Source of the DNA: a virus
Length of the DNA stretch: 64,000 nucleotides
Direction: 5' to 3' (one strand)
Virus record (IMG/VR): IMGVR_UViG_3300035703_004050
Span: 8,164 to 72,163 of that record
How positions within the stretch are numbered: the stretch's first letter is position 1; each line of letters opens with the position of its first letter. Below the pieces are notes generated by a model, which was given only the letters and a program-made list of their open reading frames with translations, was not told where the DNA came from and ran no database searches. The position numbers and the translations under genes were made by a program. Shown piece by piece: positions 2,888 to 38,568 of this stretch.

Positions 2888-3913
2888 ATGCAGTACGTGA
2901 CCATTAAGAACGGCAGCTACCGTAACGCCCCCGTTGTTGACACTGTGTTTCCGCTTATTAAGCCTTACCAAACTGGCGCTAAGGGCGGCTTTGTTACAGT
3001 TGATGCGCGTGATGTGATTGGGTTTGAGGGCTCGCCCGGTATTGTGCGTATTAAGGTTGAACCTGGTAACTATGAGGTTGTTGGAGAAAAGATGTCGTTG
3101 GAACCGATCCAGGTTGAAACTGCTCCGGTTGTTGAAGAGCCGGAAGAGCAGGTGATCGAGCGTATTGCTGAACGCTTTGCTATCCTTGAGGAGATGACCC
3201 GCGCTACCATTAACGGCGATGTCCGTGCGATGATTGTTGTGGGTCCGCCCGGCGTTGGTAAGTCGTTTGGTGTTGAAGCTGAGCTGCAAAAGAACGGTCT
3301 TATTGACCAGCTTGCGGGACGCCGTGCGCGTTACGAAGTTGTTAAGGGCGCAATGACCCCGATTGGTCTGTATGCCAAGCTGTATGAGTACAGTGAGGAA
3401 GGCAACGTTATTGTGTTTGACGACTGTGATAGCATCTTGCTTGATGACGTTTCCCTTAACGTGCTTAAGGCTGCACTCGACAGCTCCAAGAAGCGCACCA
3501 TCCACTGGAACGCAGACAGCCGACTGCTCCGCAGTGAGGGCATTCCCAACAAGTTTGACTTTAAGGGTGCAGTGATCTTTATTACTAACATTAAGTTCGA
3601 CAATGTGCGTAGTGCCAAGCTTAAGGATCACCTTGAGGCGCTTATGTCCCGTTGCCACTACTTGGATCTTACGATTGATACGGTGCGCGACAAGCTGCTC
3701 CGCATTAAGCAGATTGCACAGACGGGTACGCTGTTCCCTGCTTACGGTATGACCAACGAGCAGGAGCAGGAGATCCTGGACTTTATGTTCGATAATAAGG
3801 ACAAGCTGCGTGAGATCTCGCTGCGTATGGCGATTAAGCTTGCAGACCTGCGGCGCATGAGTGCTAACCGTTGGCAGGCGATTGCAATGAACACCTGCAT
3901 GAGAAGTCGGTAA
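2888..3913 (+). CDS. AAA+ family ATPase
   Basis: Walker A GPPGVGKS, Walker B VIVFDDCD, FITN sensor, SRC arginine finger. Confidence 0.85.
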   Translation: MQYVTIKNGSYRNAPVVDTVFPLIKPYQTGAKGGFVTVDARDVIGFEGSPGIVRIKVEPGNYEVVGEKMSLEPIQVETAPVVEEPEEQVIERIAERFAILEEMTRATINGDVRAMIVVGPPGVGKSFGVEAELQKNGLIDQLAGRRARYEVVKGAMTPIGLYAKLYEYSEEGNVIVFDDCDSILLDDVSLNVLKAALDSSKKRTIHWNADSRLLRSEGIPNKFDFKGAVIFITNIKFDNVRSAKLKDHLEALMSRCHYLDLTIDTVRDKLLRIKQIAQTGTLFPAYGMTNEQEQEILDFMFDNKDKLREISLRMAIKLADLRRMSANRWQAIAMNTCMRSR

Positions 3914-5168: not shown

Positions 5169-6631
5169 AAAAATGTAAACTAGTAATTAAGGATGAGGTA
5201 AATGTAAAGTTTGAAAATCTTGACCTTGAAATGCGTAAGCTATTAAGCAAGAAGTTCAAATATCAAATACCATATGCTAGGCATTTACCAGCAGTGAGAC
5301 TAGGGCGTTGGGATGGGTGCGTAGCCTTCTTTCAATTAGGAGGCAGCACCTATCTTAATCTTTTGCCTGAAATATTTCCTATACTAGATCAAAAAGGATG
5401 GGAAATTGATTTAGAAGATTTGCGCCAAGAGAAGCCAGACTTCAACTTTGCAACAGTGACCGAAGATTCGTTTAGTCACATAAGTTGGCCTAAAGGACAT
5501 CCACAAGCAGGGCAACCAATTGTTTTACGAGACTACCAAGTTGAAGTAATCAATGGGTTCTTATCTAACCCTGGATGCTTGCAAGAAGTTGCTACAGGCG
5601 CAGGCAAAACTATTATGACTGCTGCACTCAGTAGTCGTGTTGAACCATATGGTCGTAGCATTGTTATTGTTCCAAACAAAAGCTTAGTAACACAAACAGA
5701 AGCGGACTACATCAATTTAGGATTAGATGTGGGAGTGTTTTTTGGTGATAGAAAAGAGTGGAACAAGACACATACTATTTGCACATGGCAAAGTCTCAAT
5801 AGCTTGTTTAAGAAATCACGCGATGGCGATATTGAAGATCTAGCTACATTTGGTATTGAAAAGTTTGTCGATGGCGTAGTTGCAATCATTGTTGACGAAG
5901 TGCATATGGCTAAAGCTGATGCACTTAAGACACTTCTTACTGGCGTAATGTCTAACATACCGCTGCGTTGGGGATTAACTGGAACTGTACCCAAAGAAGA
6001 TTTTGAGTTTATGTCTATCAAGTGCAGTTTGGGAGATGTTGTTAATAGACTTGCTGCTAGCGAACTACAAGATAAAGGAGTACTAGCACAATGTCACGTA
6101 CAAATCCTACAAACGCAAGAGACACAAGACTATAAGAATTATCAAAGCGAAGTTGCATATCTAGTTACTGATTCAAAACGTTTGGATTGGATTGCAGATC
6201 AAATAAAGCTAATGCGTAAAACAGGTAACACACTTATATTGGTAGACCGTATTAATTGCGGACAGGAACTTATTTCAAGGATAGATGATGCAGTATTCGT
6301 ATCTGGTAACACGAAGGCAAGCCAGCGTAAGGAGGAATATGACGAGGTTGCTGAAGCTAGCGACAAAGTTATCGTTGCTACTTATGGGGTTGCTGCTGTT
6401 GGTATTAATATTCCCCGTATTTTTAATCTTGTTCTTGTTGAGCCTGGTAAGTCTTTTGTCCGTGTTATCCAATCAATTGGTCGTGGCATACGTAAAGCAG
6501 AAGATAAAGACTTTGTACAAATTTGGGACATCACAAGCAACTGTAAATTCTCAAAGCGACATCTTACCAAAAGAAAAACCTTCTACAATGAAGCAAATTA
6601 CCCATACACAATACAAAAGGTAAATATTTAA
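5165..6631 (+). CDS. uvsW: SF2 DNA helicase, UvsW-like
   Basis: LRDYQ, ATGAGKT, DEVH, GLTGT, QSIGRGIR motifs. Confidence 0.9.
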   Translation: MKKCKLVIKDEVNVKFENLDLEMRKLLSKKFKYQIPYARHLPAVRLGRWDGCVAFFQLGGSTYLNLLPEIFPILDQKGWEIDLEDLRQEKPDFNFATVTEDSFSHISWPKGHPQAGQPIVLRDYQVEVINGFLSNPGCLQEVATGAGKTIMTAALSSRVEPYGRSIVIVPNKSLVTQTEADYINLGLDVGVFFGDRKEWNKTHTICTWQSLNSLFKKSRDGDIEDLATFGIEKFVDGVVAIIVDEVHMAKADALKTLLTGVMSNIPLRWGLTGTVPKEDFEFMSIKCSLGDVVNRLAASELQDKGVLAQCHVQILQTQETQDYKNYQSEVAYLVTDSKRLDWIADQIKLMRKTGNTLILVDRINCGQELISRIDDAVFVSGNTKASQRKEEYDEVAEASDKVIVATYGVAAVGINIPRIFNLVLVEPGKSFVRVIQSIGRGIRKAEDKDFVQIWDITSNCKFSKRHLTKRKTFYNEANYPYTIQKVNI

Positions 6632-7863: not shown

Positions 7864-9087
7864 TTAAATTTCAGTAATTGAATTAGTTCTATCAGGGAAA
7901 TAATCTTCCATTACACCTTCTCGATATAATTCAAGAGTAATGCAATGCAATCCACCATCCCAAAAATATCTATGACGCCAAGGAACAATTATAGGTTCAA
8001 TTTTGTGTTTCTTAAAGAAAGCAAAAGCAGTTTCATTGTAGTTGTTAACACAAACATTATATTTGTCTAACATCAAAACATTTACATCAAACACACTTTC
8101 TTCACAATACCCTACCCAGTCATTTAACCAAGTTTCTACGAAATTAATAAATTGATCGTTATCTTCTTCACCAGGTACCCACCATTTGCCATTTACTTTT
8201 TTCTTCATTTTTAAGAAATCTGATACTGCATGAAAAGATTGATTTTCCAAATAACATATTTCCCAATTTGGAAATGTTTTTTCATAATTTTTTACTTCTT
8301 CAATGCTAATAATTACTCCTGGTTTAAGAGTATGAAAACAACCATCGTGATGTCCTTCAATTACTAGTCTATTAATTCTTAAATCTTGACAATATTCTTT
8401 GTAAGTTTCGCAGATAAAATTACAAGTTTTATTACTACCGGTAGTATCTAAATATAAGTCTCTTCCAACTAATGTTGAGTTTCCAGCATCGTCGTAAGTA
8501 TTAATCATAAATGATGTAATTTCATCAAGTATATTTTGTTCAATATTTTCAAAATTGTTGTTGTAATAATTTTCGTAAGTTGGCCAACTTGATCCTTTTA
8601 AAATCTCATATTGATTTTTGGTTAACTTAATTACTTTATCAGTGATGTCTGGTTTGCGATTTTTAAAATTCTCAAAATTGATAATGTCTTTACTATTATA
8701 TTGATATAATAATTTTGCAATTTCGCCGTTTGCGTCTAATCCTTGTAGATACAACTTGTTGCCAATAATAAATTGATAATCTCTAGGTTGTAATGGTGAA
8801 CGAGGAATTCCTTGTCTAAAGCTATAGTATTCAGTGCTGTTAACATTAGCAAAATTTAGTATAGATAAGTTTTTATCTACGTGAGGTCTTAGTACAGTGC
8901 ATCCAAAATCTTTTAAAACTTTTTCGTAGTACTCCAAATCTTCTAATGTTTCCTCGGTAATTTTTGTTAATGCCGATCTAATTTTGTCATTTTTAATATC
9001 TTTGAAAAAATTTGGAGAATAACTATTTCCTAACACAACAGTTTTTAGGGGGTCCCACATATTCCAAACATTATATTGGTTGTTCAT
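7864..9087 (-). CDS. amidinotransferase family protein (paralog 2)
   Basis: WDPLKTVVLG, QPRD, GHHDG, DGGLHCITLEL; near-identical C-terminal half to paralog 1. Confidence 0.8.
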   Translation of the reverse strand: MNNQYNVWNMWDPLKTVVLGNSYSPNFFKDIKNDKIRSALTKITEETLEDLEYYEKVLKDFGCTVLRPHVDKNLSILNFANVNSTEYYSFRQGIPRSPLQPRDYQFIIGNKLYLQGLDANGEIAKLLYQYNSKDIINFENFKNRKPDITDKVIKLTKNQYEILKGSSWPTYENYYNNNFENIEQNILDEITSFMINTYDDAGNSTLVGRDLYLDTTGSNKTCNFICETYKEYCQDLRINRLVIEGHHDGCFHTLKPGVIISIEEVKNYEKTFPNWEICYLENQSFHAVSDFLKMKKKVNGKWWVPGEEDNDQFINFVETWLNDWVGYCEESVFDVNVLMLDKYNVCVNNYNETAFAFFKKHKIEPIIVPWRHRYFWDGGLHCITLELYREGVMEDYFPDRTNSITEI

Positions 9088-29865: not shown

Positions 29866-32800
29866 ATGGCAGATAAAATACCAATTCCAAAACCAAAACC
29901 TGCTGCGATAGCGGCCGCTAGACAACAAGCGTTATCGGGTGCAATTGGTAATGTAACAGGTGGTGCAAATACACTTACTAATCCACCAGGTGGAACTCCA
30001 AACTCAGGATGTTCTCCAGCGACCCCAACAGGTGAAGCGCCTCCAGCAGGTGAAAATGCAGTCCAAGGCCCAACAACAAACGCGCCCGGGGGATTAAGTG
30101 GTCCATTAGGTGGTGTAAGCCCTTCAGTTCAAAATATGGTTAGAAATTCTATACCTGCTGGGTGTAGAGCTCAAGTAACGCCTAATGGTGGAGCAAGACC
30201 AAGAGGTGTCGGGGGTTCTGCTCATCCAAGAGGGTTAGCAGTGGATACTAATTTGTTTTGCGGAGGTAAGCAACAATTCCGCGGTAGCCCGCAAATGAAT
30301 CAATATATTTCCAATTTGCATAAAAATGGTGCAAGGGGGTTATCATATTATAATTCAGGATTTGTCCATGCAGATTTAATGGGGAACAGAACAAGGCGCT
30401 GGGGATCAAATCAAGGATATGTAAATGCTTTAGCAGCAGGACAAGATCCAGGCCCTGGAGCAGCACAAGCTGCCCAAGAAGGTGGATATGGTGGTGGTGG
30501 CGATCCTTGCGGCGGCGGAGGCAGCGGCGGATGTCAACCTGTTCAAAGTTCTGCTCCACAGATTGCTTCAGGACTATCTCAAAATCTAGGAATGGATGTT
30601 CCTAGTATGGTTCAAGGACTAGCTGGTTCCTTACTTGGTGGTAGTCCTTTAGCAGCAGCAATGTCACAAGTTACAGGTGCAATACAGAGTGCTTTAGGTG
30701 CTGCTGGTGGTTTATCTGGTTTGCTTGGTGCATTACCACTTAGTCCAGCAGCTTTATCAGATCCAGCTGGGGCGATCTCAAAAGCTATAACTGATAAAGT
30801 AGCTGGAATGGGCGCAAATATTTTACCTAGTATTGTAGGCAATGTACCAGCAGGATTACAACAATTCTCTGGTATAGCACAAGGACAAATATCAGACAAA
30901 ATTACCTCAACAGCTAATCAAATTTTTTCAAAAAGTAGCCCACCACAATTAGATAAATTTATTAGCATTTTTAATGCTGCTAATGGGGCTCAAGGATTTT
31001 CTAGTGCTTTACAAGAAACTGTTGGTAACACTTTAAATAATGTGTTTGGTAATGCTGGTGAACTTTTTCAAAATCCTCAAAAAAATAATTGGGCTTTAAG
31101 ATCTTCTATACCAACAGAGGAAAATGAATTTATACAATTAAATGGTCCCTTTATTGGAGAAGTAAGTGATGCAGTTGCTCAAACTGTAGTTAGGAGTCAA
31201 TTTATTGGTGATCCAAAAACAGTTTTATCTAATTTAATTGGAAGATCTACTTTAAATGCATTCTCTTCTATGTTTTACGATTGGGACGCATATGTAACTC
31301 GAGGTTACGGTACTATAACAAATAATGTAATTCAACTTGGTACTGATTTTAAAAGTTTAGGAAAACTCGCTGATTTAAATGATATATTGCGTATTGGTAC
31401 TCCTGGTCAAATTTCTCAACAAATTATTTTAAATGGTGGAGGAGCAGCTACAGGTTTATTGAATTTTATGGTTGAATCGGGGTTATCGTTTTTTGATTTA
31501 TCAAGTGTTGAAAATGATCCAAAAGCTGCAGAGTTTTTAAAAAGCGTTGCAGATCCAGAATTAATAGATTATGTTAAGCAAATTTTAGAAATGGATTCTA
31601 ATCTTAATTTGTCAACTCTTGAAGATTTATTAGATACTAAAAAAATCTTACCACTTAGCTATGAATATAACTATTTTGAAAATTTAAATGATATTGCTGT
31701 TTTTTTAAGTATGTGTAACGGAGCAGGGCAAGTCACAACACTTCGCGCACTTGGTGAATTATTAGAATCATTTGAAGTATTATTTGATTCTTCTTCATTA
31801 ACTGGTGATCCCGCAGTTTATAATTATGAACAATTAACAGAGTTTTCTAGTCAATATGCACCAGTAAGTTATTTTTCAACAGATGGCACTTTAACTATTG
31901 CTGATTTTATTGGAACTGCTGCTGGGTATATACATGAAACAACTGTTCCTAGAATAGCTGAAATTCAAAATGAACTTTATCAAGATACTGAATACTTTGA
32001 TGATTACTTAGAATTATTAGAATTATTGCGTGATGCTGCAAATGGTAATTATAAAGTCTTAGGAACACCACCGGCTCCTAATACAGTAGTGATACCATCA
32101 ACTGCTGGTTATGGATTTGGGACATATCTAACTTTAGATGACGCAATGTCTGATATTGTTGATGCTATAGAAGAGGAATTAGCATTCATTTTAGAAACAA
32201 TACAAGAAGACGAAAATGATGAAGTTTTAGAATTAATTAGAGAATTAGATTCTCTGCATACAGAAAGTGCTATGCAATTAGCAAAGGAACATAAACTTAG
32301 AAAAGAATATGGTTTTCCTTTGGGACCAAGCAAAAATACGGATGAATTCATTGGTGATGGAGTAACTAGAGTTTTACCATTAACACAAGATATTGATACA
32401 GAAGATGAAATTAATATCTTTATAAGTGGTGTTTGGCAATCTCCTTCAAAATATACTGTAAATGCTACAGCTAATACAGTAACTTTGGTAACAGCACCGG
32501 CACAAGGTAGATTAGTTTCTGTAAATTATAAAACTGGAGCATTTAACGGAACTGCTAATAAAATGCAAGTTTGGGAATTCGCATCCAGTTTAGAAAACTA
32601 TGCATTAGAAACTGGATATGGAAAATCTGCAGATTTCTTAAGACGTGTAGTAACAAATGACGAATATGGACAAAGAATTAATGCCACATTAATGAACGCA
32701 AGAAACAAAGCTCGATCTGAAGCGGTAGGTTTAAATTGTCCAAATTTTGAAACAGTTAATGGTGCTAGCCCAACATACATAAATTATGTTAATTGGACTG

Positions 32801-33372
32801 GAGTATGGACTAGTAATGCAACTAGAGCAGCAGAAATATGGTTACAAGATAAACAAGACGTTAATGAAAGTTCTGAATATTTAATTAGAAGAATGAGTCA
32901 AAATAAAATTAATATCGAAGCAGAAATTGATTTACTAACATCAAACTTTGTAAGACAATTAATATTTTATAATAATGGAAACTTAGCCATAACTGATTTA
33001 ATGTCTGATTTATATAACGTTAATCAAAATAATAAAATATATCGCGATAACAGAAATGATTTGTTTATCAATTATTCAAATGAAATTACATCAGATGGAT
33101 ATATTTTAGGCCCATATAAAGAAATTTTAACAATAATTACAGATAAGGAAAATATTAGGAACGATGTTTTCACAACATCTGTTTCATTTAATACAGAATC
33201 TTATTTAAAATCTATTAATATAGATTTAAAATTATTAGTAACAATTATACAAAGAGTGCTAACTGTGAGTACTTCAAAATATTTGGGTATTTCTGAAAAT
33301 GATTTCAAAGAGATTTTTGGTATACAAAGTGTAAGCAAAGCTATTCTAAGAAACATAGTCAATAATTACTAA
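29866..33372 (+). CDS. large virion (baseplate/tail) protein with peptidase M15-like domain
   Basis: SAHPRGLAVD ... FVHAD (SxHx6D/HxD); Gly/Ala-rich linkers; follows PAAR. Confidence 0.65.
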   Translation: MADKIPIPKPKPAAIAAARQQALSGAIGNVTGGANTLTNPPGGTPNSGCSPATPTGEAPPAGENAVQGPTTNAPGGLSGPLGGVSPSVQNMVRNSIPAGCRAQVTPNGGARPRGVGGSAHPRGLAVDTNLFCGGKQQFRGSPQMNQYISNLHKNGARGLSYYNSGFVHADLMGNRTRRWGSNQGYVNALAAGQDPGPGAAQAAQEGGYGGGGDPCGGGGSGGCQPVQSSAPQIASGLSQNLGMDVPSMVQGLAGSLLGGSPLAAAMSQVTGAIQSALGAAGGLSGLLGALPLSPAALSDPAGAISKAITDKVAGMGANILPSIVGNVPAGLQQFSGIAQGQISDKITSTANQIFSKSSPPQLDKFISIFNAANGAQGFSSALQETVGNTLNNVFGNAGELFQNPQKNNWALRSSIPTEENEFIQLNGPFIGEVSDAVAQTVVRSQFIGDPKTVLSNLIGRSTLNAFSSMFYDWDAYVTRGYGTITNNVIQLGTDFKSLGKLADLNDILRIGTPGQISQQIILNGGGAATGLLNFMVESGLSFFDLSSVENDPKAAEFLKSVADPELIDYVKQILEMDSNLNLSTLEDLLDTKKILPLSYEYNYFENLNDIAVFLSMCNGAGQVTTLRALGELLESFEVLFDSSSLTGDPAVYNYEQLTEFSSQYAPVSYFSTDGTLTIADFIGTAAGYIHETTVPRIAEIQNELYQDTEYFDDYLELLELLRDAANGNYKVLGTPPAPNTVVIPSTAGYGFGTYLTLDDAMSDIVDAIEEELAFILETIQEDENDEVLELIRELDSLHTESAMQLAKEHKLRKEYGFPLGPSKNTDEFIGDGVTRVLPLTQDIDTEDEINIFISGVWQSPSKYTVNATANTVTLVTAPAQGRLVSVNYKTGAFNGTANKMQVWEFASSLENYALETGYGKSADFLRRVVTNDEYGQRINATLMNARNKARSEAVGLNCPNFETVNGASPTYINYVNWTGVWTSNATRAAEIWLQDKQDVNESSEYLIRRMSQNKINIEAEIDLLTSNFVRQLIFYNNGNLAITDLMSDLYNVNQNNKIYRDNRNDLFINYSNEITSDGYILGPYKEILTIITDKENIRNDVFTTSVSFNTESYLKSINIDLKLLVTIIQRVLTVSTSKYLGISENDFKEIFGIQSVSKAILRNIVNNY

Positions 33373-33413
33373 AAACGAATTGACAATAAATTGAAATAAA
33401 GTATAATACGTTT

Positions 33414-33713
33414 ATGGAACAAAACTTTTATTATGATTTCTCAGATTGGAACCAAAAGCGTAGTATGCTTTGGAAGTCAATTCAATTACGCGGTGATGGG
33501 ATAGTTATGATGGAATCATGGAGAGACCACAATACTCTCTACAAATTGATGACTAATGCTGATCAATATGCAATGCACATCCAACGTGAAGAAACCAATT
33601 GTCGTAGACTTAGGAAGCAAACAACACGGCATCGTAAGTTAATCAAAACTTTTGAAGAGACTTTCCAAACATTAGAAACTATGGCTATTATGTATAGGTT
33701 GACCTACGCATAA
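33414..33713 (+). CDS. hypothetical protein
   Basis: TTGACA-N-TATAAT promoter directly upstream, near-leaderless. Confidence 0.6.
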   Translation: MEQNFYYDFSDWNQKRSMLWKSIQLRGDGIVMMESWRDHNTLYKLMTNADQYAMHIQREETNCRRLRKQTTRHRKLIKTFEETFQTLETMAIMYRLTYA

Positions 33714-33723
33714 ATATGTCGAT

Positions 33724-33906
33724 ATGGAAACACATAAGAGAAGTATAGTTAAATCAATCACATGGCGTGTAATTGCAACTTTAATCGCAGCATATTGGGT
33801 AGGGTTTGAAATAGCAATTCTAATGAACATTGTTCAAACAATTGCTTATTACATACATGAAAGACTTTGGGTACACATTAATTGGGGACGCCAAACTAAT
33901 AATTGA
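33724..33906 (+). CDS. DUF2061 family small membrane protein
   Basis: ETHKRSIVKSITWR...YYIHERLW..INWG. Confidence 0.75.
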   Translation: METHKRSIVKSITWRVIATLIAAYWVGFEIAILMNIVQTIAYYIHERLWVHINWGRQTNN

Positions 33907-33931
33907 CCTAAAGATGCTTATCGCGTATAAG
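33903..33931 (+). promoter_or_regulatory. tmRNA promoter
   Basis: TTGACC-17-TATAAG. Confidence 0.6.
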
Positions 33932-33937
33932 TATATT

Positions 33938-34001
33938 TGTAAGCGTTGATAGTGCTTTAAAAACATTTGGGACCGGGGGGCAGTACCCCGCGCCTCCACC
34001 A
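33938..34001 (+). ncRNA. ssrA: permuted tmRNA, acceptor piece (5' end approximate)
   Basis: GAC-CGGGG-GGCAGTA-CCCCG-CGCCTCC-A-CCA: T arm with the alphaproteobacterial GGCAGUA loop, acceptor 3' strand, encoded CCA. Confidence 0.92.
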
Positions 34002-34013
34002 TAAGGAAATGGT

Positions 34014-34370
34014 ATGCGTATAAGTGAAATGACATTAGATGTACCAAACATTTTGTATCATGCCACTTATCGTCCATTGCTTAGTTCAATTAAAAAGAAC
34101 GGACTAGGTGGGACAGGTAGTGAAGTTAAACGATGGGATGATAGTATCCATGGAATCGTTTATCTTGCATTAGATCCAGATGTCGCTGAAAGTTATGCAG
34201 AAACAAGTGAAAATGTTCCTGATGAATGGCTAGATGAAATCGTAGTGTTAAAAATTGATACTACACAATTAGATAAATCTAAGTTTCGTTTAGATAAAAA
34301 CGTTCAAGATAACACAGGTGACACATTGGAATATAATGGAGTAATACCTATCTCAGCAATTTCCTTATGA
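34014..34370 (+). CDS. Tpt1/KptA C-domain-like (ADP-ribosyltransferase fold) protein inside the tmRNA intervening segment
   Basis: LYHAT..LLSSIKKNGL...VYLALD..VA..YA...IVVLKID...EY.G.IP..AI; AAGGA SD. Confidence 0.7.
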   Translation: MRISEMTLDVPNILYHATYRPLLSSIKKNGLGGTGSEVKRWDDSIHGIVYLALDPDVAESYAETSENVPDEWLDEIVVLKIDTTQLDKSKFRLDKNVQDNTGDTLEYNGVIPISAISL

Positions 34371-34371
34371 T

Positions 34372-34576
34372 GGGGGCGAACTAGGCTCGACCTGTGTATA
34401 ATAAGGGCAAGGGAGTTTACAGTGAGGCGACTGACTTTTACAGCGCAATATAATAAATGCAAACGATAACTTCGTTCGTAACGAGCAAATTGCTCAGTCT
34501 ATCGTAGTTCGCGACCGCGACCTCGTAGCAGCATAAGCTCAACGGGCCGTTGGGAGCCTTGGAACAGAATCCCAAC
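34372..34576 (+). ncRNA. ssrA: permuted tmRNA, coding piece; tag (A)ANDNFVRNEQIAQSIVVRDRDLVAA* at 34459-34536 (3' end approximate)
   Basis: GGGGGCG pairs with CGCCTCC including G3.U70; GAACTAGGCTCGAC D-loop analog; ATAAAT-GCA resume context; P2 complementarity TTTACA/TGTAAG and AGGGCA/TGCTTT to the acceptor piece. Confidence 0.92.
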
Positions 34577-34607
34577 ATTTGACACAGACACACAGAAAGG
34601 AAAAACT

Positions 34608-34832
34608 ATGTCATTAAATCCATATGAGATTCGTCTCGAACTTCTAAAACTAGCACAAACAACTCTAAATGAAAAGGCCTACAATTCTCGTCAAGCATTG
34701 ATGGATCAATATCAGTACGAACGTGAAAATAGTCCAAATACTGCTTTTCCAAAGCTTCCAACAATGCCTACTTCTGAGGAAATCATTGCTGAAGCCAAAA
34801 AACTTAATGACTTTGTAAGCAATAGTCAGTAA
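34608..34832 (+). CDS. conserved phage hypothetical protein
   Basis: NPYEIRLELLKLA...PTSEEIIAEAKKLNDFV; strong SD. Confidence 0.7.
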   Translation: MSLNPYEIRLELLKLAQTTLNEKAYNSRQALMDQYQYERENSPNTAFPKLPTMPTSEEIIAEAKKLNDFVSNSQ

Positions 34833-34930
34833 TGTAAAGTGGTAGGCACATACCGTAAAGTTGTGTCGTGAACGATGGATCGGTCACACGAAAGAGGACG
34901 CTGGATTGCGTAACCAGCACATAACATTTA
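34832..34930 (+). ncRNA. candidate structured RNA (three hairpins)
   Basis: GC-rich intergenic region with stems GGCACA/TGTGTC, GTGAnCGAT/ATCGnTCAC, GCTGG/CCAGC. Confidence 0.35.
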
Positions 34931-34947
34931 TAAATGGAGTATGAATA

Positions 34948-35433
34948 TTGAAGAACTATATTAAGTCTGCAATTGCAGCACTAGCACTTGTTGGCATGAC
35001 CACTACGAGCATGGCAACGGATTCAAATTCAGACAGCGCAGGGTTTAAGGTTGGTACACTTACATGCCACTTTGACACTAGCGTTGGTTGGGTAATTGGT
35101 TCCGTTAAGGAAGCTGATTGTCTTTACAAGGGACTAAACGGCGAAGAGCAGCTTTATACTGCTGAACTTGGTCGCCTTGGTGTGGACATTGGTGTAACTG
35201 GCGCACAGACAGTTGTTTGGGCAGTTATTGCTCCAGGTAAGGCACAACCAGAAAGCCTTGAAGGTACTTATGTTGGTGCTAGCGCAGAAGCAACTGCTAT
35301 TGTTGGGCTAACTGCTAATGCACTGCTTGGTGGTTTTAAGAAGAGCATTGCACTACAACCAGTAAGCATTGGTTCACAAACTGGACTAAACGTTGCACTT
35401 GGTGTTGGTTCACTACGACTAACAGCACAATAA
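34948..35433 (+). CDS. DUF992 family exported protein
   Basis: Signal peptide; GTLTC..GWVIGS..GVDIG..WAV.AP..Y.GASAEAT..ANALLGG..SIALQP..GLNVA.G. Confidence 0.8.
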   Translation: MKNYIKSAIAALALVGMTTTSMATDSNSDSAGFKVGTLTCHFDTSVGWVIGSVKEADCLYKGLNGEEQLYTAELGRLGVDIGVTGAQTVVWAVIAPGKAQPESLEGTYVGASAEATAIVGLTANALLGGFKKSIALQPVSIGSQTGLNVALGVGSLRLTAQ

Positions 35434-35437
35434 AATA

Positions 35438-35470
35438 AATAGGGCTCGTTCTTTAGAGCCCTATTTTTTT
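35438..35470 (+). terminator. Rho-independent terminator
   Basis: ATAGGGCTC...GAGCCCTAT followed by a T run. Confidence 0.8.
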
Positions 35471-35520
35471 CTTTGACTTATCAAAAATATCACTTATATT
35501 GTCTAGTATAGGAGAAAGCT

Positions 35521-35748
35521 ATGCTAGACAAAAATCAAATGGAACGTTGGCAAAAAGTTAATGCATTTCTTGAACAAGCACTTGATCAAGTTCAAAATGA
35601 CAAAACTAAAAGCCGCAAAATCAAAAACATTCGTTCAAAGCTAGCATGGGCTTTGGACCAATACGAAAGTGGTCTTTCAGGTAAAACTGAATTACTACAA
35701 AAGCTAACACCTGAAGTAGCAGAAAAGTTTCAAGAAATTTTAGGATGA
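35521..35748 (+). CDS. hypothetical protein
   Basis: AGGAG SD; ATGA overlap with tilS. Confidence 0.65.
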   Translation: MLDKNQMERWQKVNAFLEQALDQVQNDKTKSRKIKNIRSKLAWALDQYESGLSGKTELLQKLTPEVAEKFQEILG

Positions 35749-36350
35749 TTAAACTCCTTACATCATTGCCAAAAACACTATACGTCGCTTGTAGCGGCGG
35801 TGTAGATTCTATGGCTGCGTTGGACTTTTTGTCACGCAAACATGATGTAACCGCTGCATACTTTGATCATTATACAGCACATGGCATGGAAGCAAAACAC
35901 TGGTTGTGGCGTTATTGCCAAAACAAAAACATTCCTTTTGTTCACAGTGAATTATCTAGATCAAAATTGTCAGGTGAAAGTATTGAAGAGTTTTGGCGTA
36001 ATCAACGTTATGATTGGTTTGATACACTTCCAGGCACTGTCGTTACTGCACATCACTTGGATGATGCTGTTGAAACTTGGGTATGGGCTAGTATGCACGG
36101 TCAACCAAAGTTGCCAGAAATTTATCGTAACAATGTAATCCGTCCATTCTTAGCAACACCAAAACAAGAATTAATGGATTGGTGCATTAAGAATAACGTA
36201 CCATGGTTTGATGATACATCAAACACGGATACTAAATATATGCGTAACTATGTTCGACATGTTGCGATGCCTGTTGTCCAAAAGATTAATCCAGGTATCC
36301 AAAAGACTATCAAAAAGAAATTGCTTTCTAAATTAGATAGTGTATATTAA
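35745..36350 (+). CDS. tilS: tRNA(Ile)-lysidine synthetase, catalytic domain only
   Basis: ACSGGVDS PP-loop, TAHHLDDAVET, IRPFL, DTSN..KYMRN; adjacent CAT-anticodon tRNA. Confidence 0.9.
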   Translation: MIKLLTSLPKTLYVACSGGVDSMAALDFLSRKHDVTAAYFDHYTAHGMEAKHWLWRYCQNKNIPFVHSELSRSKLSGESIEEFWRNQRYDWFDTLPGTVVTAHHLDDAVETWVWASMHGQPKLPEIYRNNVIRPFLATPKQELMDWCIKNNVPWFDDTSNTDTKYMRNYVRHVAMPVVQKINPGIQKTIKKKLLSKLDSVY

Positions 36351-36359
36351 GTGGACAAT

Positions 36360-36436
36360 GCGCTGGTAGCTCAATTGGTCAGAGCAGCGGACTCATAATC
36401 CGTTGGTTGGGGGTTCGAGTCCCTCCCGGCGCACCA
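36360..36436 (+). tRNA. tRNA with CAT anticodon, probably tRNA-Ile2
   Basis: Cloverleaf GCGCTGG/CCGGCGC, anticodon loop CTCATAA, GGTTCGAGT T arm, encoded CCA; 9 nt after tilS. Confidence 0.9.
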
Positions 36437-36455
36437 TACACTTTAAGGAGCAAAC

Positions 36456-36971
36456 ATGCTTAAGAAAATTGCAACAGGTTTAGTCGCACTGGCATTGATG
36501 AGTTCAACAGCCATAAGCGCAGAAGTTTATAGACGCAACACAGGACAGTGGACTATTAGTGGTCATGTTGGAAACGGCGATGCCAGTTGTGTTGTAAGCA
36601 CATATTGGGGAAATGGTGCTCAAATTAATGTAAACGTTTTCCCACGTTATGATGGTAGTCAATATACTACTATGACAATTACAAATCCAAATTGGCGGCC
36701 AGTTAATGCACATATGAATGAACCATTCCTTGCTGACATTATTTTTATTGGACGTGCAATTGGAACTGTACGCTTAACAGGTGAATTCCAAATTTATGGA
36801 TCACGCAAAGTTATTTTGCGTAACTTATCTGGAGCATTTAGCGACTACTTTATTGCTGCACGGGAAATGATTATTTTTCCAGGCACAGCAGATGAAATGG
36901 TTGTTGGGTTACGCGGTACGCGCAATGCCAGCTATGCACTAACAGATTGTATTAACAGGGTATTACGATAA
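36456..36971 (+). CDS. exported protein
   Basis: Signal peptide; W.I.G...C motif and terminal Cys shared with the next ORF. Confidence 0.7.
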   Translation: MLKKIATGLVALALMSSTAISAEVYRRNTGQWTISGHVGNGDASCVVSTYWGNGAQINVNVFPRYDGSQYTTMTITNPNWRPVNAHMNEPFLADIIFIGRAIGTVRLTGEFQIYGSRKVILRNLSGAFSDYFIAAREMIIFPGTADEMVVGLRGTRNASYALTDCINRVLR

Positions 36972-37561
36972 TGAAAAAACTATTTGCTTCAACAATTCTA
37001 GCAGCTTCTCTATTTGTTACTCCGGTGCTAGCCGAAGGTGAGATTTTCTACGATGGTGGTGTAGAGGGTGCATGGAACATTTTTGGTAATGCAGGCAGCA
37101 CTACGCAAAATCCTGCTTGTGTAGCAGAAGTAACATGGCAAGATGGGAGCAAGTTTCAATTAATTAAAGATCTTGCTGATGGTGAACTTTATATTTGGTT
37201 TAAAAATAATGAGTGGAACATTTCAGATCCACCAGGCAATTATCCATTTACAATGAATATTGTTGATTCACGTGGCAATGTAATTAATGGTGAATTGCAA
37301 TATGAGCTTATTAACAAAAATACAATTGCTGTTAGAAAAATTGATGTAGATAGTTTTATCCCTCCATTTATGTCAATGGCAGAAATGCGCTTTGTCATGC
37401 CAGGTGATATTCAAAATGCTTATGTTACATTAAATGGTTCTTCAGGTGCAGTTGATAAACTTTTAGCATGTATTGATACTTTTGAAAAGAAACGTCCAGC
37501 ACCGGCCCCTGCTCAACCACCGGCAGATCAACCAAAGAAATCACTTGGTCAAGAAATATAA
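36971..37561 (+). CDS. exported protein (paralog-like)
   Basis: Signal peptide; W.I.G...C; Pro-rich tail. Confidence 0.7.
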   Translation: MKKLFASTILAASLFVTPVLAEGEIFYDGGVEGAWNIFGNAGSTTQNPACVAEVTWQDGSKFQLIKDLADGELYIWFKNNEWNISDPPGNYPFTMNIVDSRGNVINGELQYELINKNTIAVRKIDVDSFIPPFMSMAEMRFVMPGDIQNAYVTLNGSSGAVDKLLACIDTFEKKRPAPAPAQPPADQPKKSLGQEI

Positions 37562-38568
37562 TGATTATTGGGTTATTTAGTGATTTTAATGCAGGCGGAC
37601 ACTTTTTAAATTGGAGCCTGCATTTCCTAGCAGGACATAATGAATATTTTCTTTCTAAAAAAAATAAATTTCTACCTTTAACTAGTAACCCTCTAACTAA
37701 AATTAATGCACATGAATTTGCATCTAATGTGGCAATCGATGCTAATGAATTTGATAATTTGTTTACAAATTTAACAAATCGCTCTACTGATACATTCCAT
37801 ACTTTTCATTTGCAAAGATTTAAGAGTTTTGAATTTCCGCCTTCGCTAATTTGCAATAATACAAAAAATGCAAGCAACACTATCTGTAAAGTAAGTCAAA
37901 AAAATATATTCTTGCAAATGCCAAACAAGTACGTACTTTATAGTGCTAAGTACGAAGGTCGAGTTTTACCTACTAAATTAAATTCATTAACTGAATATTA
38001 TAAAAATTATGATGAACAACATAATGATTTTATCGATACTTTTTTTAGTGAATCAAAAAAAGTATGGGAAGAATCAAATTTTAACAAATGGGATAAGCGA
38101 GAATTTCTAGCTCTAAATATTCGTCCATATGATTATTTTGATTTATTGCCAAATTTTGATCAAACTATAGATCATTATCATTTAAGTTTTACAGAAATAT
38201 GCAACTTCTTTGATTCAACGGTATACAAGCTATTTGACTATTTAGATATATCAATTAACAAAGATAGATATTTAGAATGGTTGCCAATATATAAACAATG
38301 GCAATCTATACATATAGATCGTTTATTGTTTGTTGAATACTTCGACACAATTGTTAATAGTGTTATTAATAATTATTGTTTAGATTTGTCTAGATTTAAC
38401 CTGGACATTATTAGAGAAGCAACTATCCAACATGAGTTAATATACAAGCATGGGTTAACAATTAAAGGATGGGGACTTGAAAAGTTTCCAAATAACGCAA
38501 AAGATTTACACAAGTTAATAGAACCAAATGTTTATCATAAAGTTGAAAACATCTACGGGTTGTTATAA
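37561..38568 (+). CDS. hypothetical AT-rich protein (possible sulfotransferase-like P-loop)
   Basis: AGGHFLNW near the N-terminus; very low GC. Confidence 0.5.
   Translation: MIIGLFSDFNAGGHFLNWSLHFLAGHNEYFLSKKNKFLPLTSNPLTKINAHEFASNVAIDANEFDNLFTNLTNRSTDTFHTFHLQRFKSFEFPPSLICNNTKNASNTICKVSQKNIFLQMPNKYVLYSAKYEGRVLPTKLNSLTEYYKNYDEQHNDFIDTFFSESKKVWEESNFNKWDKREFLALNIRPYDYFDLLPNFDQTIDHYHLSFTEICNFFDSTVYKLFDYLDISINKDRYLEWLPIYKQWQSIHIDRLLFVEYFDTIVNSVINNYCLDLSRFNLDIIREATIQHELIYKHGLTIKGWGLEKFPNNAKDLHKLIEPNVYHKVENIYGLL

Follow-up and report, generated by a model that had tools for sequence, protein, structure and literature searches.

A long covarying helix closes the spacer of a phage permuted tmRNA gene and overlaps the ends of a protein gene carried within it

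We analyzed a 64,000-nt stretch of viral DNA (hereafter the window; positions 8,164 to 72,163 of IMG/VR virus record IMGVR_UViG_3300035703_004050), in which a protein-coding open reading frame (ORF) lies inside the spacer of a permuted, two-piece gene for transfer-messenger RNA (tmRNA). The source record is 72 kb long and is estimated to be ~20% complete; the window is low in G+C, and nearly all of its long ORFs are on one strand. A long helix joins the two halves of the tmRNA gene across the spacer, is conserved and covaries in related phage genes, and overlaps both the Shine-Dalgarno sequence and the stop codon of the enclosed ORF, which we call the cargo. We consider it likely that this helix serves to close the spacer in permuted tmRNA precursors of the phage type; that is, as an element for folding and processing the precursor, with genes fitted into a loop that already existed.

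Covariance-model scores placed the locus in the permuted two-piece tmRNA family. The Rfam model RF04321 (tmRNA_permuted) matched positions 33939–34536 over its full length (model positions 1–213) with 101.6 bits against a cut-off of 47 (expectation value E = 1.5e-19), and RF01849 (alpha_tmRNA) matched at the same locus with 73 bits against a cut-off of 50. The tRNA-like domain's 3′ half precedes the 5′ half, and the domain has a T arm, a 7-bp acceptor stem with the G3.U70 wobble and an encoded CCA. The spacer appeared as one insertion between RF04321 model positions 86 and 87, running from the CCA end at 34001 to G1 at 34372. The tag frame (34459–34536), with an alanine resume codon and a hydrophobic C-terminal end, encodes ANDNFVRNEQIAQSIVVRDRDLVAA followed by a stop codon, and in both model alignments it falls in the tag region; judged by its sequence, this tag is of the alphaproteobacterial type. 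ARAGORN, run on 30000–38000, missed the tmRNA and found a tRNA-Met only, and a blastn search of the window locus against GenBank phages gave no match. The gene and its insert comprise the following features, in window positions.

33939–34001, + strand: tmRNA acceptor piece, with a 5′ extension, the T arm (33974–33990), the acceptor 3′ strand (33991–33997) and ACCA (33998–34001); from the RF04321 and RF01849 alignments
33998–34010, + strand: closing helix 5′ arm (ACCA plus the first nine spacer bases), including AAGGA at 34003–34007; read directly and by script, conserved and covarying in related phage genes
34002–34371, + strand: intervening segment (spacer) of 370 nt, predicted to be absent from mature tmRNA; from the RF04321 insertion
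34014–34370, + strand: cargo ORF of 118 amino acids (aa), an ADP-ribosyltransferase-fold protein like the nicotinamide adenine dinucleotide (NAD) lobe of Tpt1/KptA; from the ORF call, homologues, the ratio of nonsynonymous to synonymous substitution rates (dN/dS), and profile and fold matches
34359–34371, + strand: closing helix 3′ arm, made up of the final three sense codons, the stop codon TGA and U−1 of an RNase P-type leader; read directly, by inverted-repeat search and by script
34372–34579, + strand: tmRNA coding piece, beginning with the acceptor 5′ strand GGGGGCG (34372–34378; G3.U70 wobble); from alignment to both models

An earlier note on this DNA had claimed that the two ends of the spacer are complementary, and both direct reading and a script bore this out: ATAAGGAAAT (34001–34010) is the exact reverse complement of ATTTCCTTAT (34359–34368). 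The perfect complement is in fact 11 nt, one longer than had been noted (34000–34010 with 34359–34369). The same note held that the pairing prolongs the acceptor stem through ACCA/TGAT with one mismatch, which is correct, the mismatch being C33999.A34370. Beginning next to the acceptor stem, A33998 pairs with U34371, the C33999.A34370 mismatch follows, C34000 pairs with G34369, and pairing continues unbroken to U34010-A34359; G34011.A34358 is unpaired, and two further pairs lie beyond it. An inverted-repeat search returned arms of 20 nt (33991–34010 and 34359–34378) that were 90% complementary, the two non-matches being the acceptor wobble G34374.U33995 and the C33999.A34370 mismatch. Together with the 7-bp acceptor stem the helix makes a rod of ~21 bp in the window, a long stem of the kind that closes 23S rRNA intervening sequences. 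The minimum-free-energy fold of 33939–34440 (502 nt) includes this rod (z = −5.45 for the whole fold), and the energy of the window stem is −15.3 kcal/mol. Also as claimed, the 5′ arm holds the Shine-Dalgarno sequence of the cargo (AAGGA, 34003–34007, 6 nt ahead of the ATG at 34014), and the 3′ arm consists of its final codons and stop (ATT TCC TTA TGA, 34359–34370), the TGA at 34368–34370 ending 1 nt ahead of G1.

To compare the helix across phages, we scanned viral contigs for permuted tmRNA genes with two acceptor types, CAGGTCC and CGCCTCC; one motif was also run on bacterial genomes. Only the T stem and acceptor served as anchors in the viral scans, and the arms were left free to vary. 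The resulting sets contained at least 88 and at least 106 distinct phage spacers and at least 116 alphaproteobacterial spacers, and all counts of spacers and of their genes given below are among the matches listed. From the matches of one viral scan we dropped 25 without a 5-bp T stem and seven without a 5′ strand in reach. Loci L311, L312 and L346 were excluded, as what follows their putative G1 did not resemble a coding piece, and so were L423, L168 and L214, for which no 5′ strand was found within the locus.

Pairing was counted in a gapless, fixed register from the discriminator base. Results showed that positions 6–14 were paired in 88–100% of 86 genes with the CAGGTCC acceptor and in 91–100% of 91 genes with the CGCCTCC acceptor, with three to six pair types at most of these positions; shuffling partners within the gapless register gave 41–95% paired, and slid registers gave much less. 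The C.A mismatch at position 2 was found in 85 of 86 genes of the first type and 84 of 91 of the second, and A73 paired with U(−1) in 78 of 86 and 88 of 91. In sets of 85 and 84 phage genes the helix ended, at the median, 16–17 positions past the 7-bp acceptor stem. The 177 phage spacers had 137 different 5′ arms and 145 different 3′ arms. These formed 162 distinct arm haplotypes, and at least 9 of 11 pairs were present in 153 of them, whereas 1000 partner shuffles averaged 23.5 such haplotypes and reached 40 at most.

The earlier note had named covariation across homologous loci among the checks to be made, and we found covariation both in 44 diverse genes and in the 162 arm haplotypes. For the 44 genes, RNAalifold predicted a closing helix of 10 bp besides the T arm and the acceptor stem, and each of the 10 pairs in this helix showed changes on both sides. 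The structure-pair count for these genes was 95.3% of cells paired, compared with 75.6% after shuffling (0 of 500 shuffles as high), and the covariation score was 0.529 compared with 0.163 (again 0 of 500); slid registers were 41–47% paired. G.U pairs were frequent on the sense strand (e.g., 46 G-T at position 8 and 53 T-G at position 13), whereas the A.C and C.A pairs that the antisense strand needs were rare. Therefore, the helix belongs to the plus-strand precursor RNA.

The note had further proposed that the helix brings the distant tmRNA halves together and so marks an adapted rather than an accidental insertion. The joining of the halves is upheld, and the case against accident is strengthened by the covariation, the intact tmRNA parts, purifying selection on the cargo and the recurrence of the layout in diverged phages. 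The stem, however, probably predates the insertion. Phage spacers of 29–86 nt that have no ORF are plain hairpins whose stem is equally regular and whose 5′ arms are not Shine-Dalgarno-like, and because of this the helix cannot be regarded as an adaptation to this particular insertion. The hairpins of alphaproteobacterial host genes were far less regular than those of the phages: in 80 such genes 51–69% were paired at positions 5–12 in the gapless register, a count that may miss pairs in bulged host hairpins, and the median helix end was at position 9.

The cargo has 82 homologues. Among the three copies embedded in tmRNA genes (the window and loci L002 and L060) dN/dS was 0.07–0.13, and we therefore concluded that the cargo ORF is translated and selected. 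An AlphaFold2 model (mean predicted local distance difference test score, pLDDT, 78.2) was compared with solved structures using Foldseek; the best matches were all KptA or Tpt1 chains (E 2.8e-5 to 1e-3; template modeling (TM) scores of 0.51–0.58 normalized on the query), and the next were toxin-type ADP-ribosyltransferases. By this predicted model, the cargo has the fold of the ADP-ribosyltransferase NAD lobe. A PDB profile match to 6e3a (E 0.0026) aligned residues 8–41 of the query with chain residues 90–122, the LYH(G/A)T region of Tpt1, and a Pfam search found no family at E up to 0.1. The possibility that the cargo is a full Tpt1/KptA was rejected, as the matches did not extend over both lobes of that enzyme: the cargo shares the fold of the NAD-binding lobe but is without the N-terminal RNA lobe, and it is 118 aa long compared with 176–180 aa for the matched chains. 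Because of the missing RNA lobe and the lack of a Pfam hit, we refer to an ADP-ribosyltransferase-fold protein and not to a Tpt1. In 68 aligned sequences H16, Y19, Y50, Y61, E63 and Y107 were invariant and E106 nearly so, and 14 of the 82 homologues end in Ser-Leu.

We fetched the DNA loci of cargo homologues from 53 viral and 80 metagenomic places. At most of them the cargo domain is embedded in a long open frame or occurs by itself, not within a tmRNA gene. The enclosing frames usually extend for hundreds of codons on one or both sides (e.g., L004, L059, L007, L085), and the domain has the appearance of a single module in very large, multidomain phage proteins; it also occurs in Prevotella Lak megaphages at 33–36% identity. 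Three distinct genes carry it in the spacer of a permuted tmRNA, namely those of the window, of L002 (a viral contig of 250 kb; 78.8 bits with RF04321) and of L060 (122.7 bits with RF04321). The three cargos are 65–68% identical in protein sequence, and the stems of these relatives are kept; a synonymous change of TCC to TCT turns one G-C pair into G.U, and in L002 a change of TGA to TAA adds one stem mismatch. A fourth tmRNA, in L073 (92.1 bits), has the same arms and an unrelated 125-aa ORF in its loop, with AAGGA ~20 nt from the start codon, and a free gene of the window’s cargo family just upstream of the tmRNA. Against GenBank phages only T-arm-sized pieces of the L073 tmRNA matched (5–8% of the query). 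Five loci that had been considered as permuted tmRNA hosts (L007, L061, L066, L087 and L089) were dropped by eye as chance, the supposed 3′ strand being in a coding region and its partner more than 1100 nt away.

Genes of other kinds occupy the same loop in other phages. ORFs that fill the loop were found in 8 of 8 spacers above 250 nt (0.1 expected from shuffled interiors), in 19 of 42 spacers of 131–250 nt (1.4 expected) and in 14 of 61 spacers of 87–130 nt (5.7 expected); none was found in the four bacterial spacers above 86 nt. These cargos are mutually unrelated, and many are short hydrophobic peptides. The 482-nt spacer of L238 has a 156-aa HNH homing-endonuclease-like gene (5958–6425, + strand; phrog_655, 6.7e-15), which ends in Val-Ser-Leu and then TGA like other cargos, and this was the single nuclease-family match among the 10 largest cargos tested. 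DUF2061 membrane proteins (L357, 72.6 bits; L452, 22.3 bits) and a CxxCxxCC domain protein (29.4 bits) were also found as cargo.

The spacers have changed faster than the genes around them. Of the 63 gene pairs whose mature flanks are both at least 90% identical, 45 have spacers less than 60% identical, and L323 and L360 have flanks that are 100% identical around spacers of 49 and 172 nt. Among assembled contigs from public runs, those of two DNA runs had 67 or 194 different letters between window position 34001 or 34004 and position 34368, and one of these runs also yielded a contig with the window’s cargo at 21 letters different. These comparisons indicate that phage tmRNA spacers are an exchangeable gene slot with fast turnover. 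Genes seem to move between upstream and in-spacer positions as well: a DUF2061 gene is upstream of the tmRNA in the window and is spacer cargo elsewhere, and L073 presents the converse for the window’s cargo family. Unrelated cargos also share first codons (MRIKELTES in L002, at 2989–3030, and in L333; MRIKD in L073), and L073 and L333 share an extra stretch between AAGGA and ATG, which suggests that cassette exchange has breakpoints inside the ends of the ORFs.

The arms of the helix are reused for ribosome binding and for the stop. We compared 41 ORF-bearing spacers of the arm-unbiased sample with the 136 others. Of the 41, 27 end at the UGA of positions −4 to −2, and 12 have their stop 12–15 nt before G1, just ahead of the 3′ arm. 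When a Shine-Dalgarno sequence was counted as at least 4 nt at a spacing of 3–12 nt, 30 of the 41 had one; it began at helix positions 6–8 in 23 of these 30, was fully paired in 19 and paired save one base in 26, and lay beyond the stem in seven. Within their first 12 nt, 29 of the 41 had a Shine-Dalgarno-like 4-mer, compared with 29 of the 136 others. The stems were weaker in the ORF-bearing spacers (median −13.1 versus −15.8 kcal/mol, p = 3.8e-6). Unrelated cargos that are read through the same 3′ arm also end in Ser-Leu, because the ORFs run through that arm to the invariant UGA of the UGAU leader.

We infer the following order of events, enzymes and processing sites for a closing stem with this function. 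The stem would stack on the 7-bp acceptor stem through A73-U(−1), the conserved C74.A(−2) mismatch, C75-G(−3), A76-U(−4) and ~10–12 more pairs, to give a whole rod of roughly 21–23 bp. It would form in the primary transcript and keep the acceptor strands in register whatever the loop, which is 29 to ~480 nt in relatives, and it would most likely also offer the maturation enzymes a well-defined substrate. The tRNA-like domain would then fold, and RNase P would cut at G1, a cleavage with which the conserved U at −1 fits. The spacer would be removed, possibly following a double-strand cut by RNase III; a rod of ~21–23 bp has the length of a typical RNase III substrate. Because such a stem would insulate tmRNA folding from the content of the loop, phages could repeatedly place small genes there, and these genes would take the purine-rich 5′ arm as their Shine-Dalgarno sequence and usually end at the invariant UGA of the UGAU leader. 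Since the closed stem hides the Shine-Dalgarno sequence, translation would probably come first and tmRNA maturation afterwards; that is, the cargo would be translated while the 3′ arm is unmade or covered by ribosomes, before the stem closes.

A bolder version, which we put forward tentatively, treats the precursor as a two-state RNA in which the ~21-bp stem is a ribosome-sensitive timer between cargo translation and tmRNA maturation, and the arms are a portable ribosome-binding and stop module. The polymerase, and then ribosomes on the loop and 3′ arm, would keep the Shine-Dalgarno sequence free, and the cargo would be made. When ribosome traffic lapsed, the stem would shut, the message would be silenced and the molecule would be committed to tmRNA maturation. 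As the stop is 1 nt before the cut site, the last ribosome would also cover G1. If this were true, small phage genes in general could be plugged into the spacer and would be expressed at the same time and level as the tmRNA.

The arm counts also bear on a different explanation, in which the helix is mainly a translational switch that masks the Shine-Dalgarno sequence and stop region of the cargo, with tmRNA maturation secondary. Protein would then be made only in a short co-transcriptional window, or while ribosome traffic opens the stem. The Shine-Dalgarno sequence of the window is entirely inside the stem, the register of this sequence at helix positions 6–8 and its extensive pairing recur in relatives as counted above, and the ORF-bearing stems are weaker and richer in G.U, as would be expected if initiation competes with the stem. 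Gating of translation by the stem is thus plausible, and the weaker stems argue for some selection on access, although they may only reflect a purine-rich Shine-Dalgarno sequence paired to U. However, the stem is equally regular in the 136 spacers without a loop-filling ORF and so cannot have arisen for the cargo. The seven Shine-Dalgarno sites distal to the stem speak against gating as the reason for its existence, as does the finding that empty spacers have identical stems, and we regard the switch as an unlikely main function. We give still less credence to the proposal that the two pieces are transcribed separately and that the arms pair in trans, lengthening an intermolecular acceptor helix from 7 to ~21 bp, in which case the 3′ trailer of the first transcript would hold the ORF as an ordinary gene. 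Covariation is blind to cis versus trans pairing, and a promoter-like sequence (ATAACA, 17 nt, TATAAT; 10 of 12 matches) lies at 34309–34337 (+ strand), inside the end of the cargo ORF and ~35 nt before G1. Yet the consensus promoter scan of 33700–34700 that found this one site gave 3.5 sites on average in shuffles, which is not significant; spacers of 29–60 nt have the same stem and no room for a promoter; and permuted tmRNA is described in PMC3985003 as coming from one precursor.

Two other explanations take the arms to be something other than RNA structure. If they were DNA-level boundaries of a mobile cassette (i.e., a recombination or homing target), one could account for the swapping of spacers between nearly identical tmRNA genes, the homing-endonuclease-like gene in L238, and the shared first codons of the different cargos of L002 and L333. 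This is very improbable as an account of the helix, however, as the arms are diverse yet complementary, unlike a fixed recognition site; G.U is tolerated on the sense strand only; and a nuclease family was present in only 1 of the 10 largest cargos. The remaining explanation is chance complementarity in a tmRNA gene broken by insertion of a foreign gene. The inverted repeat alone is weak evidence against it, because a perfect 10-mer inverted repeat occurred somewhere in the 701-nt region in 21% of mononucleotide shuffles. In contrast, the probability of one at a fixed place, flush with both acceptor strands, is ~1.2e-6; L002 and L060 keep both stem and cargo through G-C to G.U changes, at the protein identity given above; and all tmRNA features are intact. 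The comparative data thus refute chance complementarity and make a chance origin of the helix untenable.

Several points weigh against the closing stem as we favor it. Identical spacers were merged, but related lineages share history, and only two acceptor types were sampled. With 51–69% pairing of host genes at positions 5–12, the regular stem can only be presumed an ancestral element of the phage-type precursor. A stem whose main purpose is to clamp long loops should be stronger in long, ORF-bearing spacers, and we found it to be weaker. A fully paired ACCA with the leader is generally thought unfavorable for RNase P; we speculate that the conserved C.A mismatch relieves this problem. Lastly, in RNA-library run X17 a single assembled contig covered only 34399–34600, with unlike sequence before it.

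Two-piece permuted tmRNA genes are known from Alphaproteobacteria, including Caulobacter (Keiler, Shapiro and Williams 2000, as cited in PMC3985003 and PMC11915505), and from aquatic phages such as phage Melnitz (PMC9004378), and the window shares with them the order of acceptor piece, intervening segment and coding piece, the encoded CCA, G3.U70 and an ANDNF-type tag. In the known genes the spacer is removed without religation, with RNase P and a 3′ endonuclease as the proposed enzymes, RNase P and tRNase Z being called no more than probable (PMC3985003); for the window such removal is predicted from the sequence. The window differs from the alphaproteobacterial genes in its 370-nt spacer with a selected protein, compared with spacers of 3–127 nt in at least 116 of those genes, of which the spacers above 86 nt held no loop-filling ORF, and the phage stem is longer than that of the hosts and in a fixed register. 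As far as the available portions of these papers go, a 2025 tmRNA database paper with 79 phage sequences mentions only a tRNA-Ala gene and a repetitive element in permuted spacers (PMC11915505), and the Melnitz paper, with 53 two-piece phage tmRNAs, does not mention spacer ORFs (PMC9004378). Our literature search turned up no paper that describes protein-coding genes in the spacers of permuted tmRNAs; the supplementary tables of PMC11915505 and PMC9004378, which were outside the search, might list spacer lengths.

The closest published analogue appears to be the RNase III-excised intervening sequence of the Coxiella burnetii 23S rRNA, with its S23p ORF, as described in PMC4990558. It too is a stem-closed insert with an ORF in a stable-RNA gene, and it is cut out without religation to leave a functional RNA in two pieces, the counterpart of which is predicted for the window. 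In Coxiella, excision by RNase III was shown and the intervening RNA undergoes rapid degradation; the ORF there is in decay and apparently escapes translation in vivo (PMC4990558). In the window, by contrast, the host RNA is a tmRNA, the ORF has a Shine-Dalgarno sequence and a dN/dS indicative of selection, and the content of the loop is exchangeable. Protein genes inside tmRNA genes are also known from group I introns, some of which have LAGLIDADG homing endonuclease genes, and the L238 spacer likewise bears a homing-endonuclease-like gene. Those introns lie in the T loop, self-splice and are religated (PMC11915505), whereas the window ORF is in the permutation spacer between CCA and G1, with no ribozyme involved.

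A further comparison concerns the masking. The coat-replicase interaction of the RNA phage MS2 is a long-range helix that masks a ribosome-binding site until translation or folding kinetics open it. In a similar manner, the Shine-Dalgarno sequence of the window is predicted to pair hundreds of bases downstream in a translated RNA, and the passage of ribosomes could open the pairing. Unlike in MS2, the partner in the window would be the last codons of the ORF itself, and the helix would also be part of a stable-RNA precursor.

The surroundings of the locus were also annotated. A putative promoter lies upstream of the tmRNA:

33903–33931, + strand: promoter-like TTGACC (33903–33908), 17-nt spacer, TATAAG (33926–33931), recognized by eye, with a predicted start near 33939

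This sequence is absent from the consensus scan because the rule demands T as the last base of the second hexamer. Directly upstream of it is the 60-aa DUF2061 membrane-protein gene (33724–33906, + strand; 36.8 bits), and farther upstream is a 1168-aa protein with a Gly/Pro/Ala-rich N-terminal third (29866–33372, + strand). Downstream are a DUF992 protein with a signal-peptide-like start (34948–35433, + strand; 151.7 bits) and a 201-aa PP-loop protein (35745–36350, + strand; PF01171, E 2.5e-33), 10 nt beyond which lies a tRNA whose anticodon is CAT (36360–36436, + strand). DUF992 is typical of Alphaproteobacteria, which would suit the alphaproteobacterial type of the tmRNA. If the PP-loop protein is a TilS-like lysidine synthetase, the CAT tRNA may be tRNA-Ile2 and not tRNA-Met, and the two may form a phage-borne pair of enzyme and substrate.

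Permuted tmRNA spacers have hitherto been treated as short, discarded RNA, whereas here the precursor of a stable RNA also encodes a selected protein. Because ARAGORN missed the tmRNA, we expect that annotation of such loci will give the gene or the tmRNA, rarely both. The RNA also shapes the ends of proteins, in that the 3′ arm dictates the Ser-Leu shared by unrelated cargos. One helix would serve tmRNA folding, ribosome binding and translation termination at once, and the locus would offer a compact system for studying how translation and RNA maturation compete on one molecule. For the large, uncultured aquatic phages that carry them, these spacers would constitute a gene slot with fast turnover.

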